From an uncultured Gammaproteobacteria bacterium (GTDB lineage: Bacteria; Patescibacteriota; Patescibacteriia; 2-12-FULL-60-25), in the NCBI GenBank assembly GCA_964360885.1, contig CAYHYU010000002.1, positions 1 through 27,524 on the forward strand: DNA of 27,524 nt, given 5' to 3'. This document shows positions 5,379 to 27,524 of this stretch, in pieces. Both the position numbers and the translations under genes were made by a program. Positions within the stretch are counted from its first letter, which is position 1. Each line of letters starts with the position of its first letter. The notes under the pieces were generated by a model. It saw only the letters and a list, made by a program, of their open reading frames with translations, ran no database searches and had not been told where the DNA came from.

Positions 5379-5430
5379 AGGTAACCGGAGTGTAGATGAA
5401 AAAATTGTTTTGAGCTATATTGCCCAAAAC

Positions 5431-7869
5431 ATGCTAACCGCATTCGACCGCCTTCTCCAGAAACGACCAGTTTTCCTCATCTGCGTCGCGTTTCTGTGCT
5501 TGGCGCTGTTTCTGTTTGCTCCGATCCTGTTCGAAGAACGACTCTTTTCCGGCCTCTATGTGAATCTGTATCACGTCTTTTTTTTCGCCGGCCAGAAGTA
5601 TTTGATCTTTACGCTGCACCAATGGCCGAATTGGTGGCCGCATTTCGCTTCCGGATATCCCATCAGTCTCACGCTCGACGGGTTCCTGAATCCGATGTTC
5701 ATCCTCGCCCTGAAATTCCTGCCTGTCCTGCCGGCCTACGCGTGGCTGACCTTCTTCCTCTTCGTCGCGAATGGCGCGAGTTGTTACGCCTGCGCTCGCG
5801 CATTCTCGTTGACGCGCGCGGCGAGCGTCATCGCCGCACTCGCCTACGGTTTCAGCGGCATCATCATCCGCTGGACGGACGTCATCGTATTCGCGTCGAT
5901 CTTCCCGATCCTGCCGCTGTCTTTCCTCGCCGTCCTCAAGATCAAGCAGGGAAATCGCACATGGCGGTGGATCTGGACCGCGTTGCTGACCTACGCCTGG
6001 ATCGGCGGCTTCGCGGAGCTTCTGGTGTATGACCTGATCGCGATCGGCGCATTCTGCGTCACGCTCCTTCTCGCCGACAAACCGCTCACCCTGAAAAAAT
6101 TCATGCTCGACGGGTTTCGCCATTTTTTTCTCCCGGTCTTCGTCAGCGTCCTCCTCGTGTCCCCGTGGCTCGTCTCTGTGCTGTACTTCATCACGCATGA
6201 CACGATCCGCGCGGGCGGTCTTGCGGTTGCGGACGCGTCCAGTATGCCTCTCACGATTTCGTACCTCATCCACGTATTCCTTCCGCGCCTAAGCGTTTTC
6301 TACGGTGACAACATCCCCTACCTCCGGCTCGGCGACGATATCGACCTGTTTCTTGGAACCGTCCCAGTGCTTCTCCTCATCTCGCTGTTCTTCTCGTGGA
6401 AAAAGACCTCACAACGGCATCGCGGCTTTTTCGTCGGGCTTCTCGCGTTCGCGCTCCTCATGAGCTTTCGTTCCCCGATGTACCTGCTCCTTCATCAGCT
6501 CCCAGTCCTCAACTGGTTCCGATGGCATTTCAAATGGTCGTTCTTAACCGTGTTCGCGGCGGCGATACTCGCGGGGTATGCGATGGATGCACTGCGCGCC
6601 GTTATTCACGAACGATGGGCGAAACGGACGATCATCATTGGCTGGACCGCTCTCTGTCTCGCCGTGCTCGGATCTTTTTCCATCATGCGCTTCGCGCCGA
6701 CGCTGCAAAACAAAATTGTCAGCTTCGGCATGGCGCATTATGCGGCAAGCGCCTCACAAAACCTTTCCCGCTCCGCCGACTACTACGCCTGGCTTATCCG
6801 TCACATGGCGGATTCGCTCGTCCAAGGTCTGTCGCTTTCGAATCAATGGATCATACTCCTGTTTGCGCTGTGGGCGACGGCGCTCGCCTCGTTCACGATC
6901 ATCGCGTGGCAACGGATCTCATGGACGCGATCCAGACAGCTTCTCGTTCTCGCAACGGCGCTCGGATGCGTGCTGCCTTGGACCGGTTTTCTCGTCGGGC
7001 TCCCCAACCGATACCTCACGGAAGAACCGGCCACGGCCGCGTTCCTCCATCGAGCAAACGCGTACTGGGATCTCCCGGTGAGCGGAGCGCAAGCCGCGAC
7101 GCACGTCCCGTACCGTGTCTTCCCCTATTTTCCGGATCAATCCGTCGCCGACCTCCAAGACCGCTATCGCATCAATTTCGTGGATCACGACAACCGCTCG
7201 TGGCTGTCGCGCGAGATGCTGGATGACAATAACAATACGTGGTTCGGCATCGATGGCATGTTCAATCATGAACCGTTGACCGAGGCGCGCATGGCCGCCT
7301 TGTTCGAACAGGTCATGGGTCGGACAGCGACTGCGACGAAAGACTCGCTCGCCGCCAACATCCGATTCTTCTCCTCCACGCACACCGCGGAGCTACTCGG
7401 CATCGCGAACGTCAAATACGTCACCTCTCCTCATATTCTTGGTGGTCCGTGGAAACTCGCGCAGACGAGCCATATTCTCGAAAAACGAGTTCCCGTCTAC
7501 CTCTATGAAAATCCGTTTTTCCGGCCACGCTGGTATTTTGCCGATCGCGTTTCAGCGTCCGACGGCCTTTCTGACATGACGTTCCTGGAAAGGAAGGGCG
7601 CGGACGAATTGCAATTGGTCGCCTACACGGCGGGGCGTCTTGAACTCTCCACGAAAACGGCAGAAGGGCGTTGGATCGTGTTCAGCGAAACGGGCGTTCC
7701 GTTTTGGCGGGCCAAAATAGACGGCAAGAAGACGCCGCTCATTCGCGCGAATCTCGCGTATCAAGCCGTATTTGTTCCGGCAGGAACGGGGCATCGCGTC
7801 GAATTTTATTACCTCGCGTTCTGGGAGCAGGCGCGGGCGTCGCTCACGGCATTCATCAAGGGCCGTTGA
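5431..7869 (+). CDS. YfhO-family polytopic membrane protein (GT-C-like glycosyltransferase)
   Basis: Many hydrophobic segments, WWPHFASGYP near the N-terminus, and a YfhO-type C-terminus (WIVFSETGVPFWRAKIDGKKTPLIRANLAYQAVFVPAG.HRVEFYY). Start is ATG 5431 (alternative TTG 5410). Confidence 0.8.
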   Translation: MLTAFDRLLQKRPVFLICVAFLCLALFLFAPILFEERLFSGLYVNLYHVFFFAGQKYLIFTLHQWPNWWPHFASGYPISLTLDGFLNPMFILALKFLPVLPAYAWLTFFLFVANGASCYACARAFSLTRAASVIAALAYGFSGIIIRWTDVIVFASIFPILPLSFLAVLKIKQGNRTWRWIWTALLTYAWIGGFAELLVYDLIAIGAFCVTLLLADKPLTLKKFMLDGFRHFFLPVFVSVLLVSPWLVSVLYFITHDTIRAGGLAVADASSMPLTISYLIHVFLPRLSVFYGDNIPYLRLGDDIDLFLGTVPVLLLISLFFSWKKTSQRHRGFFVGLLAFALLMSFRSPMYLLLHQLPVLNWFRWHFKWSFLTVFAAAILAGYAMDALRAVIHERWAKRTIIIGWTALCLAVLGSFSIMRFAPTLQNKIVSFGMAHYAASASQNLSRSADYYAWLIRHMADSLVQGLSLSNQWIILLFALWATALASFTIIAWQRISWTRSRQLLVLATALGCVLPWTGFLVGLPNRYLTEEPATAAFLHRANAYWDLPVSGAQAATHVPYRVFPYFPDQSVADLQDRYRINFVDHDNRSWLSREMLDDNNNTWFGIDGMFNHEPLTEARMAALFEQVMGRTATATKDSLAANIRFFSSTHTAELLGIANVKYVTSPHILGGPWKLAQTSHILEKRVPVYLYENPFFRPRWYFADRVSASDGLSDMTFLERKGADELQLVAYTAGRLELSTKTAEGRWIVFSETGVPFWRAKIDGKKTPLIRANLAYQAVFVPAGTGHRVEFYYLAFWEQARASLTAFIKGR

Positions 7870-16499: not shown

Positions 16500-18260
16500 T
16501 TATAGCAGATAGAGCAGATGGCCGCCAATAGGAATGGGATCGCCTTTGATTGCCCATGCCTTCCGCTCATCCGAACTCAACAGAGCGTCAGAGACGAAAT
16601 AATCGACGCGATACGCATGCAATTGATCGAGAGCGTTCTGTTGCAGGAAAACACGATACCGTGGCTCGAGCACATCAATCTGACGGAGGAGCCAATCGTC
16701 AACGCCTGTCATAAAGATGGTTTTCCAATCATCAAAAAATGAACTGCGCACGAGATTAGGATGCGAGAGGAGATAGGAACGAACATTCGCCGACGTTACA
16801 CCTTGTAAACGCAGATGAAGGAAAAAATTGTGTGCGATTCGATCTTCCGGAACGCCAGAGAAAACCCACGAGGAGATGTACGTGTTGCAATGCGTGAAGG
16901 CAGGAATGAAGCGTGCGAGATGTTCGACAGGTTCCTTCACGAGCACGACACAATCCGGCGAGGCGTTTCGATTCAACCAATCAAAAAGCTCCGCATCCGC
17001 TTGCCGCTTCTTGAAATCCGGCAATACGGACTGATGCGTCACCGCCGCGGCTCCCGCCTGCAGAATGACGAAGAGGAGGAACGCGCCGCATGCGGCGCCG
17101 ACGGCTCTGGACCAACGCGCGCCGACGGCGCGGATGAGAATCACGATCACGACGATCATCGCGAATGGTTTGGTGTATTGCACGAAGTGGTACGGCCAAA
17201 TTTCACGTCCGGTGACGATCTGTTGGTTGAGCGCGAGAAGCCCGCCGAGAAGCAACGATGCGGACACGATCCACCACGGTTCGCGCGTGAGTTCACGCCA
17301 CGAGGTACCACGACGGACGAGATACGCGCTCGCGAGCAAAAAGAGTATGAGCGCGGCGAGGAGCGTTTTATTTAACAGCGGCGCGTGCGTGAAAAACATC
17401 CCGTTCCGAAGCGCAAGCGCTCTCCCCACCTCCCCGCCGACGGAACGGAACGTGGAGATCCAGTACGGCGCACTCACGATGAAGCTCGTGCCGACGACGA
17501 TCGCGACCTGTTTTACGCGCCGCCAATCTTTCTGCGCGAGAAAGATCGCGCCGAGAACCGCCGTGACCGAGATGAGTACGCCCCAACTAAAAAAATAAAA
17601 CACCGACGCTCCGAGCAGGATGCCGGCGAGAACTCCGACCCAAAGACGCCGCTCCTCAAGCGCTTTCCAAAGCAGGTTCAGGTATCCAAAGACGAGAAGT
17701 GCGCCTAAGATCGGATTCACAGGCCGCGTCCAGAGGGATACACGCACGCCGATATCTTGGCCGTGCAAAAGGCTCCAAATATCCTGAATGCTCAAGAGAT
17801 CATATCCGAGCGTCACGAGCAATCCGCCCGCGATCGCTCCGAGCGTCTGAAGACGAGGCGGTTCCGACGTAAGAAGTCGCCGAAGGAACGCATAGATGAG
17901 AAGGAACAACAATGCTGGAAATAAAAACTTCGCGAGCACGAGCGTCTGCGCGAGCACGAGTCCGGTGGCGCGTGAGAGTCCGACGTAGACGTATTCACCA
18001 ATCGGCGGAAGAAGCGCGCGATCGTTTTTATATTCGTAAAAAAATGCGGACCCGACGGACGGGTGCCCGTCCACGATCTCCTGCATGCGCGCGAGGTAGA
18101 TGTCCTCGTCGTCGGTGTACATGAACGGGATGTCCCGATACGCCGAGCCGATGGATCGAACGGCGAGGAGATGCGGAGTGACCGAAAGAACGCCGACGAC
18201 GATCGCGAGAACGAGAGCCGCTCGATGTCGATGGAGATTAATCTTTGCGAGCCACGACAT
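16500..18260 (-). CDS. Polytopic membrane protein, GT-C-like (586 aa)
   Basis: N-terminal TM followed by an acidic loop motif YTDDEDIYLARM, about 10 or more TM segments, and a soluble C-terminal domain. Confidence 0.7.
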   Translation of the reverse strand: MSWLAKINLHRHRAALVLAIVVGVLSVTPHLLAVRSIGSAYRDIPFMYTDDEDIYLARMQEIVDGHPSVGSAFFYEYKNDRALLPPIGEYVYVGLSRATGLVLAQTLVLAKFLFPALLFLLIYAFLRRLLTSEPPRLQTLGAIAGGLLVTLGYDLLSIQDIWSLLHGQDIGVRVSLWTRPVNPILGALLVFGYLNLLWKALEERRLWVGVLAGILLGASVFYFFSWGVLISVTAVLGAIFLAQKDWRRVKQVAIVVGTSFIVSAPYWISTFRSVGGEVGRALALRNGMFFTHAPLLNKTLLAALILFLLASAYLVRRGTSWRELTREPWWIVSASLLLGGLLALNQQIVTGREIWPYHFVQYTKPFAMIVVIVILIRAVGARWSRAVGAACGAFLLFVILQAGAAAVTHQSVLPDFKKRQADAELFDWLNRNASPDCVVLVKEPVEHLARFIPAFTHCNTYISSWVFSGVPEDRIAHNFFLHLRLQGVTSANVRSYLLSHPNLVRSSFFDDWKTIFMTGVDDWLLRQIDVLEPRYRVFLQQNALDQLHAYRVDYFVSDALLSSDERKAWAIKGDPIPIGGHLLYLL

Positions 18261-20032: not shown

Positions 20033-20995
20033 TTACGGCAGATTGATTTTCTCACGAATGACGTAGGCGCGCGAACCCTTGGATTCGTAATACGTCCGCA
20101 TGAGGACTTCCGCGATCAGGCCGAACAGGATGAATTGGACGCCGACCACGACGAACATGGCGCCGACCGTGGGCAGAGGCGTCTGCACGAGATGGATTCC
20201 GTAGAACCGGAGCACCACCGCGGCGAGCTCGGCGAGGAAGCCGATCCCAAGCGAGACGAATCCGAGCGCGCCGAAAAAATGCATCGGCTTATTGAAATAG
20301 CCGGTGAGAAATTTTACGACGAGCAGATCAAGCAAGACCTTGAACACGCGCGAGAGACCGTACTTGGATTTCCCGAAACGCCGTGCGCGATGGTTGATGA
20401 TAATCTCCGTGACGCGCGCGCCGCTCCATGCCGCATAGGCCGGAATAAAACGATGCATTTCGCCGTAGAGTTCGATGTCCTGAATGATCTCTCGCCGGTA
20501 GGCCTTCAAACTGCACCCGTAATCATGCAGAGCAACGCCGGTGAGCCATGAGATCAGGGCGTTTGCCATCCATGATGGGATCTTGCGGGTCAAAAATTCG
20601 TCCTTCCGATCTTTGCGCCAACCGGACACGCAGGAGTATCCCTCGCGGATTTTTTCGAGAAACAGCGTAATATCCGCGGGATCGTTTTGCAAATCAGCGT
20701 CCATGGGAATGATCACGTCGCCCGTTGCGAGCTTGATGCCGCAGGACATCGCGGCGGTCTGCCCGAAGTTTCGCTTGAAGACGATGCCCTTGAACCGACG
20801 GTCTTCGCGGCACAGCGCCGAGATGATTTCCGGACTGCCGTCCGTGGATCCATCGTCAACCAAAAGAAACTCCATCTCGAGTTGAGGAAGTTTGACGGCG
20901 ACCGCCTTAAGCTCTTCGGCGAGGATGGGCAGGCTTTCCTTCTCGTTATAGGCCGGTAAAACCACGGAAATCTTCCGGATGGGGTCGGATTGCAT
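20033..20995 (-). CDS. GT2 polyprenyl-phosphate glycosyltransferase (DPM1/ArnC/GtrB-like) with two C-terminal TM helices
   Basis: SVVLPAYNEKESL, VDDGSTDGS, RNFGQTAA, MDADLQNDPAD, GWRKDR, DYGCSLKAYRR, EMHRFIP. Confidence 0.95.
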   Translation of the reverse strand: MQSDPIRKISVVLPAYNEKESLPILAEELKAVAVKLPQLEMEFLLVDDGSTDGSPEIISALCREDRRFKGIVFKRNFGQTAAMSCGIKLATGDVIIPMDADLQNDPADITLFLEKIREGYSCVSGWRKDRKDEFLTRKIPSWMANALISWLTGVALHDYGCSLKAYRREIIQDIELYGEMHRFIPAYAAWSGARVTEIIINHRARRFGKSKYGLSRVFKVLLDLLVVKFLTGYFNKPMHFFGALGFVSLGIGFLAELAAVVLRFYGIHLVQTPLPTVGAMFVVVGVQFILFGLIAEVLMRTYYESKGSRAYVIREKINLP

Positions 20996-23668: not shown

Positions 23669-24613
23669 TTACCCTGAGCGAGCTTCGCGAGTCGAAGGGT
23701 CTTTCTCCCCCGTCACGATGAGTCCCCACGCCCATCGTTCTCCCATCCATTTTTTGACGGACATCGGAAAATATCTAAAAAACGGAAACTTTGCCATCGG
23801 CCATCCATCAACTTCATGCGGGATATAAAACGGCCACGCCCGCACGTTTGTGTATCCAGCTGCTTCGTACATCCGAGTCGCCTCGCTCGGCGAATAGACC
23901 TTCGTGAGCATGTTCCCGCCTTTCGGCGCGCCGTCCGTGTAGCGCGAGACGATCGCGGTCGTGTTGCCGCGAGTCGAAAGCAGTTTGCCGCACAGAATCC
24001 CGCGCAAAAAAATAAAATTGAACCAGTATGTCCACGACGATTTGTTGTACATGTACGCGAGCATCTTTCCTCCAGGCTTCAAAACGCGATTGATCTGACG
24101 AAGCGCGCGCTCCGTGTCCGGCATGTGCATGACGCACCCCCACGCGAGAACATAGTCGAACGTCGCGTCCGGAAATGACATCTCCTGCGCATCCATCTGC
24201 TGGACAGTGACGTTCACGCCTCTGACCTCCGCGTGGCGCTTCGTCATGCGAATCGCCTCTTCCGTGAGATCGATTCCTGTCACCTCCGCGCCCGCTTTTG
24301 CGAGTGTCACGCTCGACCATCCGGACCCTACGGCGATGTCGAGAACTTTTTTACCGCGAATGTCCGCGTATGGAACAAGATTCGAGAGGAGCGGCGCGCC
24401 TTCCGCCTGACCGGATGTTCCGTATTGTTTCCGCATCTTGCGATCGACTTCTCGAAAAAAATGTTCATCAAGCTCTTGCACACGCCCCGTGATGTCATAA
24501 TCCCCTTCTTGCGCCGCAAGTCCGAGCGTAAACGGATGGTCGTTCCACCACGACTGCACGCGTTTCGTGTATTCTTTCGCGTCTTCCGGACGCATCGTTT
24601 TTGTCGGTTGCAT
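23669..24613 (-). CDS. Class I SAM-dependent methyltransferase (type 11)
   Basis: VLDIAVGSGW, GIDLTEEAI, DAQEMSFPDATFDYV, GCVMHMPD, RVLKPGG. Confidence 0.9.
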   Translation of the reverse strand: MQPTKTMRPEDAKEYTKRVQSWWNDHPFTLGLAAQEGDYDITGRVQELDEHFFREVDRKMRKQYGTSGQAEGAPLLSNLVPYADIRGKKVLDIAVGSGWSSVTLAKAGAEVTGIDLTEEAIRMTKRHAEVRGVNVTVQQMDAQEMSFPDATFDYVLAWGCVMHMPDTERALRQINRVLKPGGKMLAYMYNKSSWTYWFNFIFLRGILCGKLLSTRGNTTAIVSRYTDGAPKGGNMLTKVYSPSEATRMYEAAGYTNVRAWPFYIPHEVDGWPMAKFPFFRYFPMSVKKWMGERWAWGLIVTGEKDPSTREARSG

Positions 24614-24654: not shown

Positions 24655-26249
24655 TTACTCGGCGCCCTTGTTTATCGGTCGAATCTTGAACAAATGCAGC
24701 TGAAAGCGCTCCAGCTGAAAATCAGGGCTCTTGCCGACAAAATAAAAAGCCTGAGACACCTCTTCCTCCATCAGAAATGGGGGGAGGTAAGAATAATATG
24801 GCAAGGTCTTTTTTTCCAGAACCTGCATCTGTCCACTACTCAAATTTTTCTCCGAGAATGCAAAATCCGGCAATACCGAATGCCTCATGATGCTCATTCC
24901 ACTTTTTTCGCCATACGGGCCTATGAGTATGTAGAAAATTTCCTGCGAAGGAACAATATTCTGTACCCCATCTACGATGGATACACGGTCTTCTCCCAAC
25001 CATTTACTGATAAAAGGACTATGTGGGTCGTCTCGTAAGAGATACACCGGAGTATGTACACCGACCAGTGCGTGCAACTCTTTATAGCTCTCTACCTTCG
25101 ATTGGATCATGAGCTTTGTCCAATTCAATTGCCCAAAGGCAAAAATAGCAAAAAGAAGACAGAGAACAAATGAGCATTGCCGCGATTTGACTACGTATGT
25201 GCGGAAAAACTCACTCGCGAGAAGAGCAAAGACGAGTACCGTGATGGGATAAATGGGAAATTGCGACCGACCCAGCTTGGTAAACGGCAGAAGATCGATA
25301 AGCATTGAATGAAGAAAAATCACTCCCAAACAAAGCAGTATTATCCGAGATGAAAACGATCGCTCTTTATGAATAAAATACCGGTACAAAAACCAAATAA
25401 TGATTGCAAGAAAAACGATCACGAATAACGGTGAATACATCCACAAGATACGGAGATAACTGAACCACGGACTGCTTGGGATCTGCCCAAATTTCTGAAT
25501 GGCCTCGAACTTATGCCCATTATAAATATTCGGTAGCCAGTGTTCGAATAATCGTCGTCCGTTTATTAAGAGAAAAGGCAGAATTGTCATTCCGAATGTT
25601 CCCGGAAATACGAAACTCATTGAGATCGGACGTCTTATCAGGGCAAATGGTGCTAACGCGGCGATGCTGAGCAGGGCCGCTGACGTGCTCGCAAATAACA
25701 AAGAGGCGACCCCCCCCCAATCATTAAATAGATTGTCTTTTTATATTCCGACTCCTCACGGATCGCCAAAACAAAACAGGCGAGCAAGCAAAGCGTGAGA
25801 AAACCGGTCCATGGCGCATAAGAGGCCATAAGAAGATACGATGCGGGCCAAGCAGAAAAGGCGAACATACCCAACGCCATCGCAGCGGCAGATGCGCTCC
25901 GTGAAATCACATAGGCGAGATAACTCAATATCAGAAGCGTCAAAACATTGGAAACAATAACAAGCACAAGCCACCCGTTGACATCTGAAAGATGCAAAAT
26001 GCGAACCAGTTGCTTCGATGCTTCCATGGTCATAACGCTCACGCCGTTGTAAGACGTTAAAGCCTTGTACCAGGATACGTTTTCAATTCGCGCATCATCT
26101 GAGGGAAACAATCGATATGGTGAGGAGATGAAAATAAAAACTACGGCATAGACAGCTACAAAGACAGCAGTGAGGATAATGATCCCATTTTTGCTTCGAC
26201 AAAAGACGAAAATCGAGGCAAGATATTTCTGGAGTTCTTCCTTCAACAT
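24655..26249 (-). pseudogene. Polytopic GT-C-like membrane protein (about 531-540 aa if restored), split by a frameshift at a G9 tract; pseudogene or phase-OFF allele
   Basis: The upstream frame (MLKEELQKY...PSDDARI...IYLMIGGG) and downstream frame (VASLLFASTSAALL...KGAE*) join at 25710-25718. G10 or G7 gives one continuous ORF. Start is 26249 or 26276. GC is about 35-42%. Confidence 0.8.
25710..25718 (-). repeat. G9 homopolymer (C9 on the plus strand) at the frameshift junction
   Basis: Plus strand reads gcga ccccccccc aatcat. It is the longest G/C run noticed in the window. Confidence 0.9.
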
Positions 26250-26298
26250 ATCAATACCACGAAAGAATAATGGCATATCGAAATAAAAACAAGCTGTC

Positions 26299-26922
26299 TC
26301 ACGAGGAAGATTTTTGCGCGAGGAGATAATACCCCGAAACCTGTTTGCCAGAGCCGAGGCGCACTCCGTCAATCCAGCGACCGATGCGGCGCAGGAATTT
26401 TTGGCGACCGGGGACGAGATGCGCGAGCGTCTCGACCGGTCCGCGGACCGCCGCGATTTTTACGCTCTCAAACTCCCCGCAGAGCGATCGGAGTCCGTCT
26501 TCGGTGAAACGAAAATAATCACCGTAGTATCCCTCAAGCGCGTGGTAGGGCGAAAGGAACGGAACGTAGAGAAAAAGACATCCTCCGGGTTTGAGCACGC
26601 GGTGCATTTCGCGCATCGCGTCCCACGGACGCGAAACATGTTCGAGCACCGCGAGGCAGATGATCGCGTCTTCGCTCGCGTCAGGAAGAGGCAACGACAT
26701 CACGTCGCCCACGATGTCCGGATGATACGTCGGCACGGGATCAAGCACGCGATACGTCACGCCTGCGAGAAGCGGTTTGATCCACGCGCGCGCGGGATCC
26801 TCGCGATTGCCGCGCGAAGCGTCAATGCGCAATCCAGCACCGATATCCAAAATCCGCGCGCCGGGTTGGAAAATCCGATGAACGCTCTCTTCAAAAAATT
26901 GTTCCCAAAACGGTTTCATCAT
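26299..26922 (-). CDS. Class I SAM-dependent methyltransferase (type 11)
   Basis: ILDIGAG, DIVGDVMSLPLPDASED, LAVLEHVSRP, RVLKPGG, VPFLSPYH...DYFRFT. ATGA overlap with the upstream GT4. Confidence 0.9.
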   Translation of the reverse strand: MMKPFWEQFFEESVHRIFQPGARILDIGAGLRIDASRGNREDPARAWIKPLLAGVTYRVLDPVPTYHPDIVGDVMSLPLPDASEDAIICLAVLEHVSRPWDAMREMHRVLKPGGCLFLYVPFLSPYHALEGYYGDYFRFTEDGLRSLCGEFESVKIAAVRGPVETLAHLVPGRQKFLRRIGRWIDGVRLGSGKQVSGYYLLAQKSSS

Positions 26923-27524
26923 AACACGGTTCGAAGGCGACCTATGAACGAATCAATATCCGCTGCTTTTTTCACCCCTTCGCGCGCGACGGGACGGGCC
27001 GCCGGATGACGGAGCGCGGCGAGCACTGCGTCAACGGCCGCGTCATCCGTGAGCGACGGCGCGAGCGTCACGCCGGAAAACCCGCGATACGACGACCCGA
27101 CTGCGACGACCGGCGTTTCGCAGGCGAGCGCTTCGAGAACGACTTTGTCCAAACTTCCGGTTCTGCTCGGGCTCGCGAAGATTGCGGAGCGCGAATAGAG
27201 CGCAACGAGCGCATCACCGAGAAGAGACGGCGACATCGTGACGATGTCCGCGAGTCCGAGCCGCGCAATCTCTTCCTTCACGCGCTGTGTATACGCGATA
27301 TCTTCCGGCAGTCGAGGGTCTCCGACGATCATGGCGCGAAATGCAAGCGACGATGCGCGACTTCTGATGAGATCGCAGAGCGCAATGAATGCGAGTTGGT
27401 CTTTTCGTTGTGAAATGCGACCGATCGTCAAGAGCAGTGGCTCGCGCGGAACAGAAGCCGGACAAAAACGTTCCAGATCAATGCCGTGTCCCATCACGAT
27501 CTTTTTCCGCGAAGGAATGCGCAT
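26919..27524 (-). CDS. GT4-family glycosyltransferase, C-terminal part (5' end outside the window)
   Basis: GHGIDLERF, IGRISQRKDQ, SPSRTGSLDKVVLEALACETPVV. The ATG at the window edge is probably internal. Confidence 0.88.
   Translation of the reverse strand: MRIPSRKKIVMGHGIDLERFCPASVPREPLLLTIGRISQRKDQLAFIALCDLIRSRASSLAFRAMIVGDPRLPEDIAYTQRVKEEIARLGLADIVTMSPSLLGDALVALYSRSAIFASPSRTGSLDKVVLEALACETPVVAVGSSYRGFSGVTLAPSLTDDAAVDAVLAALRHPAARPVAREGVKKAADIDSFIGRLRTVL

Follow-up and report, generated by a model that had tools for sequence, protein, structure and literature searches.

A poly-G tract at the frameshift of a predicted GT-C fold glycosyltransferase gene: a candidate phase-variable switch in a groundwater CPR bacterium

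A glycosyltransferase gene divided at a G9 tract

The DNA analysed here (the window, 27,524 nt) is contig 2 of an 863-kb genome in 104 contigs (G000), which is estimated to be 100 % complete. Genomes of relatives measure 0.7–1.6 Mb, and the size of this genome, taken with theirs, fits the CPR/Patescibacteria. Sister contigs were recovered from groundwater at Hainich, well H52. An environmental, possibly CPR, bacterium had been suggested in an earlier note made from the letters of the window, and both the CPR-sized genome and the groundwater origin bear this out.

The gene of interest, predicted to encode a GT-C fold membrane glycosyltransferase (hereafter the GT-C gene), belongs to an array of minus-strand genes made up of GT4, methyltransferase, GT-C gene, methyltransferase, and AsnB-like amidotransferase. 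Both methyltransferases are SAM-dependent, one directly upstream of the GT-C gene (26299..26922, minus strand) and one 41 nt downstream (23669..24613, minus strand). An ArnC/PgfS-like polyprenyl-phosphate sugar synthase of the GT2 type (20033..20995, minus strand; Pfam Glycos_transf_2) is located in the same cluster, 3.7 kb downstream of the GT-C gene; it matches the ArnC-type NCBIfam model PRK10714 over positions 3-312 of 316 (E 1.2e-61), below the equivalog cut-off. This GT2 probably makes the lipid-linked sugar donor for the GT-C enzyme, which may in turn decorate a surface glycan outside the membrane with the lipid-phosphate-linked sugar.

Two more large proteins of the cluster, encoded at 16500-18260 (minus strand) and 5410-7869 (plus strand), are without an NCBIfam match, and a Pfam scan of the former gave no match. 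One sister contig (GCA_038055915.1; L004) reaches 6.2 kb beyond the end of the window at 27524. The glycan cluster continues in this extension (L004 1-6162), where a 633-aa product matches GT4 and PMT_2 and is accompanied by a methyltransferase, a 731-aa double GT4, and an asparagine synthase called as two genes, of 257 aa and 359 aa.

On the minus strand the sequence reads ...TTA ATG ATT GGG GGG GGG TCG CCT..., the nine Gs standing at 25718..25710 (25710..25718, C9 on the plus strand). This tract sets the frame of the gene, G9 being OFF and G10 ON. It forms codons 178-180 (residues G178-G180), within a transmembrane helix that spans residues 168-186 of the structural model, and G10 encodes I-G-G-G-V inside this helix. 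The upstream frame is that of ORF 25653..26372 (minus strand), in which the likely starts of the GT-C gene are the ATG at 26249 or an alternative ATG at 26276, just past the stop of the preceding methyltransferase at 26299. With the former start, the 5′ segment of the gene is 25653..26249; it holds a conserved PYRxFPSDD loop and a SAWP motif and ends in a premature stop at 25653-25655. Across the tract the upstream frame reads ...YLMIGGGSPLCYLRARQRPCSASPR, then stop; past G9 it reads GGGSPLCYLRARQRPCSASPR, with the stop 18 residues after the tract. The 3′ segment (24655..25710, minus strand) is in the −1 frame, beginning at the last G of the tract, and reads VASLLFASTSAALLSIAALAPF... (sequence from that G: VASLLFASTSAALLSIAALAPFALIRR...). 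It is open for 351 codons, with its stop at 24655-24657, and holds the rest of the transmembrane helices and a C-terminal soluble domain with LPFTKLGR, DDPH, GPYGxxSG, and EEEVSQ.

Two parts of the window match a profile of 55 family members, at model positions 4-166 (25710-26192) and 165-517 (24685-25716); the profile thus splits at 166/165, which places the break inside the tract with nothing missing. In BLASTP comparison with a relative (P0004), the 5′ part aligns up to ...FLIAGG and the 3′ part from shortly after. Four relatives, of 503-594 aa, came from a word-indexed search with the 3′ part; with the intact allele as query, exhaustive HMMER searching recovered 114 representative clusters. 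Most of these are of 500-550 aa, and they align in one stretch over residues ~25-520, straight across the break. The two segments are one gene of ~531 aa with a true frameshift exactly at the G9 tract as its sole lesion. A single unit separates the two states: with G9 there is a stop 18 codons on, and with G10 there is a 531-aa protein (P0010). The earlier note had placed the frameshift at this tract, without other lesion, and had given its coordinates, the out-of-frame tail, and the single ORF with G10. All of this is confirmed by the halves in BLASTP, by the profile running across the break, and by a G10 allele in a sister assembly from the same well.

A split enzyme of two subunits (a 207-aa N-terminal and a 321-aa C-terminal fragment) is an unlikely reading of the same frames, as the helix with residues 181-210 would be lost; it is also disfavoured because every relative is a single chain.

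The AlphaFold2 model (55-sequence alignment; mean pLDDT 93.9, pTM 0.93) has ~14 helices followed by a small alpha/beta domain. In a Foldseek search of the PDB, ranks 1-41 were all GT-C enzymes (ALG9, ALG12, ArnT, STT3/PglB/AglB, PMT, AftD, Emb), with probability 1.00 and TM ~0.5, and the structure matches in AFDB Swiss-Prot were TMEM260, ArnT, RgtD, and ALG12. Judged by this model, the product is a GT-C fold membrane glycosyltransferase, in agreement with the membrane glycosyltransferase-like gene proposed previously. Sequence searches placed it in no named family: Pfam gave no informative family for either half, the intact protein, or the 55 relatives, NCBIfam gave nothing for the intact protein, PDB sequences searched with the family profile gave no match, and membership of GT39/PMT, GT83/ArnT, GT66/STT3, GT22/ALG, or other named GT-C families was not found by sequence.

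The family consensus PYRxFPSDD lies in the first loop, in a non-helical stretch (43-50) between the first transmembrane helices. P44, Y45, and P49 are at least 90 % conserved over the 55 sequences, and D51 is invariant in the eight closest. GT-C enzymes typically carry acidic residues in the first outward-facing loop, and the acidic residue(s) of PSDD may have a catalytic role. Compared with ALG9/ALG12, ArnT, STT3/PglB/AglB, PMT, and TMEM260, the protein has the same overall fold, a PSDD-type acidic motif in the first outward-facing loop, a length of ~530 aa, a multi-TM core, and a small C-terminal soluble domain; however, sequence identity to these enzymes is only 11-15 %. The family is small and uncharacterized, with 114 clusters at 50 % identity.

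Tract length among assemblies and long G/C runs in the genome

At 90 %, the cluster that contains the 3′ product has six member proteins, drawn from four near-identical assemblies. The window has G9 and is OFF. ENA assembly Hain_H52_02um_R2 (coverage 2; L003) also has G9, with the two-ORF split seen in the window. In ENA assembly Hain_H52_02um_R3 (coverage 3; L002) the tract is G10 and the 531-aa ORF is intact, reading ...MIGGGVASLLF.... The contig of the fourth, NCBI GCA_038055915.1, is 100 % identical over 1789 nt and ends 18 nt before the tract. The comparison of strains recommended in the earlier note gives G9 against G10 among near-identical assemblies, with no further decay in any, and the tract is the only indel over 7.7 kb when the two Illumina contigs are compared with the window. 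Differences in tract length among assemblies are the pattern expected of a switching locus and weakly suggest one.

The G10 contig has ~3x k-mer coverage and error-like substitutions, and its extra G may likewise be an error. Of its three substitutions, two are at most 70 nt from the tract and two are T-to-G, regarded here as the typical miscall of this two-colour chemistry. Eight of the nine substitutions that distinguish the two low-coverage contigs from the window are transversions, and look technical rather than natural. The Hainich metagenomes were sequenced on the NextSeq 500 (2×150 bp), with a two-colour chemistry in which G is dark (PMC8672522). A control is provided by the in-frame G9 tract in uvrA on contig 31, which is G9 in every assembly recovered; the 961-aa UvrA from another Illumina assembly has one residue different and retains the GGG.

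The end of the GCA_038055915.1 contig was considered as a sign of a G9/G10 bubble and found uninformative, since a bubble would break within or after the tract. ENA assemblies ERZ1300416 and ERZ2470813 (L010-L013), from the same population, were considered as controls. They have ~47 gap openings in 6.7 kb, with many genes split and the reverse-transcriptase tract compressed to G6, a gap pattern typical of long-read error, and they are unfit for frameshift or tract-length calls. An exact-pattern scan of JGI metagenomes for the flank of the tract gave no match.

Neither MutS domain V nor a MutL domain was found in the 863-kb genome; each family was matched in 11 of 14 control genomes. In Campylobacter and Helicobacter, absence of MutS/MutL repair is one reason that poly-G tracts slip at high rates. 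Runs of G/C in the genome fall ~6-fold with each added base, from 2135 of length 4 to 385, 64, 9, and 1 of lengths 5, 6, 7, and 8. Extrapolating the decay of the shorter runs predicts 0.30 runs of length 9 or more; there are five, three of length 9 and two of length 10 (Poisson P = 1.6e-5), an over-representation of ~17-fold. The G9 run had been said to stand out in its surroundings, and on this count it does. Codon usage gives a similar picture: GGG makes up 17 % of Gly codons, and among ~130 Gly-Gly-Gly windows 0.65 would be expected to be all GGG, while two are seen in called genes in addition to the target.

In six homologues from other organisms, a single conserved Gly stands at the site, followed by hydrophobic or small residues, and their genes are free of G/C runs throughout. 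This places the origin of the tract in the lineage of the window. On this comparison of sequences, it would have arisen via two extra GGG codons, the tenth G being the G of the following GTC codon.

The other long tracts of the genome are in varied settings, only one of the five being in a surface-glycan gene. A G10 tract on contig 16 (2601-2610; L006:2601-2610) forms codons 9-11 (RGGGV) of a 335-aa reverse-transcriptase (Pfam RVT_1). The G9 tract in uvrA (contig 31, 6973-6981; L005:1973-1981) encodes residues 445-447 of UvrA, an odd site for a slippery run in a genome without MutS/MutL. On contig 1, a C9 tract (6406-6414) is upstream of a RadA-like ORF (minus strand), with a 10-N scaffold gap only 8 nt away; assembly met difficulty at this poly-G/C tract as well. 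The G10 tract on contig 77 (1880-1889) is apparently intergenic, 16 nt downstream of the end of a 520-aa open frame (minus strand). A screen of the genome for homopolymer frameshifts, meant to gauge assembly quality, gave ~30 candidates, nearly all of them ordinary gene junctions with A/T runs, and would need homology checks to discriminate.

Proposed slipped-strand switching and competing explanations

The explanation preferred here, and considered slightly more probable than not, is a contingency locus that slipped-strand mutation turns ON and OFF and that the window captures in the OFF state. The poly-G run would be hypermutable, by slipped-strand slippage inside the GT-C coding sequence. 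With G10, the 531-aa enzyme would take a sugar from a polyprenyl-phosphate carrier, charged by the ArnC/GtrB-like GT2 of the same cluster, and add it to a surface glycan at the outer face of the membrane. Loss of one G in replication (G9) would shift the frame after residue 180 and end translation 18 codons later; only the first third (~180 residues) would be made and the enzyme would be OFF, until gain of one G restored it. The population would be a mixture of ON cells and OFF cells, distinguished by a single surface-sugar decoration. As no MutS/MutL was found, slips should be frequent. Actual switching, like its rate, the substrate, and any benefit, is inferred. The earlier note's contingency locus captured OFF thus stands in part: G9 is OFF and a G10 ON allele is present in a sister assembly, but that allele is on a contig of ~3x coverage and is possibly an error.

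The poly-G/C loci of Campylobacter jejuni, Neisseria, and Helicobacter likewise have an intragenic G run of 8-11 that frames a glycan-modifying enzyme, where a one-base slip means ON or OFF; the tract in the window is alike by its G9/G10 reading. Those loci also share the over-representation of long G/C tracts against a steep decay of shorter runs, and Campylobacter and Helicobacter are, as this genome, without MutS/MutL-type repair. Glycan-decorating enzymes are a typical target for phase variation. In Neisseria, poly-G/C contingency loci include the lgt genes and pgtA/pglA (PMC2193922). There are differences, however. The host of the window is a free-living or episymbiotic groundwater CPR bacterium, whereas these three are animal pathogens, and its genome has only ~five long tracts, most outside surface genes. 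With the other tracts placed as they are, the genome shows no evident classic set of contingency loci in surface genes. In addition, the enzyme here has a predicted GT-C membrane fold, whereas the switched enzymes of the pathogens are usually soluble GT-A or GT-B, and the switch here is a candidate one.

Similarity is also seen to three-component systems for periplasmic glycan modification, of the GtrA/GtrB/GtrC and ArnC/ArnT type, in which a GT-C transferase and an ArnC/GtrB-like GT2 are likewise in one cluster. By analogy, the pairing suggests an optional surface-glycan decoration that may be switched within the population. The gtr operons of Salmonella vary in phase by an epigenetic route, with Dam/OxyR acting at the promoter, whereas the tract of the window is a coding homopolymer. 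Sequence-level membership of GtrC, ArnT (GT83), or PMT (GT39) was not detected for the GT-C protein of the window, and a GtrA-type flippase, as in Gtr systems, was not identified in its cluster.

The strongest competitor, which is nonetheless considered unlikely, is a plain recent pseudogene: a 1-nt deletion in an incidental homopolymer, within a dispensable acquired gene that is being lost, where reversion would have no adaptive meaning. The distribution of the gene fits this. Searches of two same-genus genomes and 38 other relatives did not find it, the family profile run against 400 genomes of the phylum produced no more than five matches, all weak and partial, and a locus search with eight sequences gave only two distant loci, in Omnitrophota and Planctomycetia MAGs. 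The GC content of the gene is 10 points under that of the genome, at 44.4 % compared with 54.4 % for the window (a gene of about 40 % GC had been reported from the letters, which is too low). The near-absence from the phylum, the relatives in Omnitrophota and Planctomycetia, and the low GC together suggest, from sequence comparison, that the gene was horizontally acquired. That G9 is found in two independent assemblies is also in keeping with a gene being lost. Against this, there is no second lesion in 1.6 kb, the sequence is essentially identical in the four assemblies, and an in-frame allele was assembled from the same well. The over-representation of long G/C tracts argues against an incidental homopolymer as well and, without MutS/MutL, at a rate inferred by analogy with Campylobacter-type systems, G9 would often revert, making a fixed OFF state hard to keep.

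Distinctly less likely again is an artefact of sequencing or assembly, in which the true tract is G10, the gene is intact, and the G9 of the MAG and of replicate R2 is a miscalled homopolymer. Poly-G is known to cause trouble, another tract of the MAG (the C9 on contig 1) is next to a scaffold gap, the sister contig ends just before the target tract, and the low-coverage Hainich contigs have about one error-like substitution per kb. However, a 27.5-kb contig and a separate replicate assembly each gave G9 independently, the uvrA G9 was assembled correctly in every assembly, and no other indel was seen in 7.7 kb. Illumina sequencing counts homopolymer bases cycle by cycle, therefore a consensus error at moderate coverage is unlikely.

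It is very improbable that expression is rescued from G9, by RNA polymerase slippage or by a −1 ribosomal slip on G_GGG_GGG, with G9 as a leaky or intended form. A −1 slip on the tract yields exactly the G10 protein, ...IGGGVASLL, and transcriptional slippage is known at homopolymers of 9 or more; these are mainly A/T runs, however, and G/C runs slip poorly compared with A/U runs at both the RNA and the ribosome level. The heptamer G_GGG_GGG of a programmed −1 frameshift or slippage site is present, but it is accompanied neither by a stable structure after the tract (90 nt downstream, MFE −19.8 kcal/mol, z = 0.15 against shuffles) nor by a Shine-Dalgarno-like stimulator upstream of it, and an in-frame G10 allele exists in the DNA. 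The frame-restoring −1 slip raised in the earlier note is thus formally possible on this sequence and without a stimulatory structure. All other explanations together carry about as little weight.

Poly-G tracts in related genomes and significance of the locus

To our knowledge, homopolymer phase variation has been described almost only for host-adapted pathogens, and in the literature searched in full text there was no account of a homopolymer ON/OFF switch in CPR bacteria. The mechanism proposed here is of the well-known poly-G contingency type; what is unusual is the CPR groundwater host and the predicted GT-C family without a Pfam model. CPR cells rely on contact with hosts through their surface and are under heavy pressure from phages. 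If the switch is real, stochastic switching of a surface sugar would be cheap bet-hedging for a 0.86-Mb genome. The locus also offers a first functional handle on an uncharacterized GT-C family that lacks a Pfam model. Public Hainich time-series metagenomes and metatranscriptomes exist, and counting of tract lengths in these can test the claim directly.

Tracts of G9 or longer are present in 30 of 41 relatives, closed genomes included, usually with 1-5 per genome and often at the 5′ ends of genes. It is tentatively proposed, as a possibility that is more doubtful than likely, that groundwater CPR/Patescibacteria without mismatch repair keep a small conserved poly-G contingency set, consisting of surface-glycan enzymes and the starts of reverse-transcriptase genes, which would be a general means to diversify the surface and to gate retroelement activity against phages or hosts. 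The members cited for this set are the GT-C gene of the window, a Wzy_C gene in a relative, and the reverse-transcriptase gene starts. If true, phase variation would be common in ultra-small environmental bacteria, beyond animal pathogens.

In a closed 1.19-Mb relative (G036), an in-frame G10 tract (L032, 2001-2010) is located ~55 codons into a 400-aa Wzy_C open frame. Wzy_C is an O-antigen ligase/polymerase family, making this the second surface-glycan gene of the class with an intragenic poly-G. Five other genomes of the class (L029, L034, L039, L042, L043) have a G/C tract of at least 9 at or just 5′ of an RVT_1 start, in four cases with a full ORF of 337-354 aa and in one with an open frame of 246 aa. 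RVT_1 accounts for five of the ten ORFs tested beside such tracts, and poly-G at the RVT_1 start looks like a conserved feature of a CPR retroelement.

At one homologous locus (L025), the GT-C family gene is beside flgM, flgN, flgK, flagellin, and fliW, a context that hints at glycosylation of flagellin or a surface protein in other hosts.
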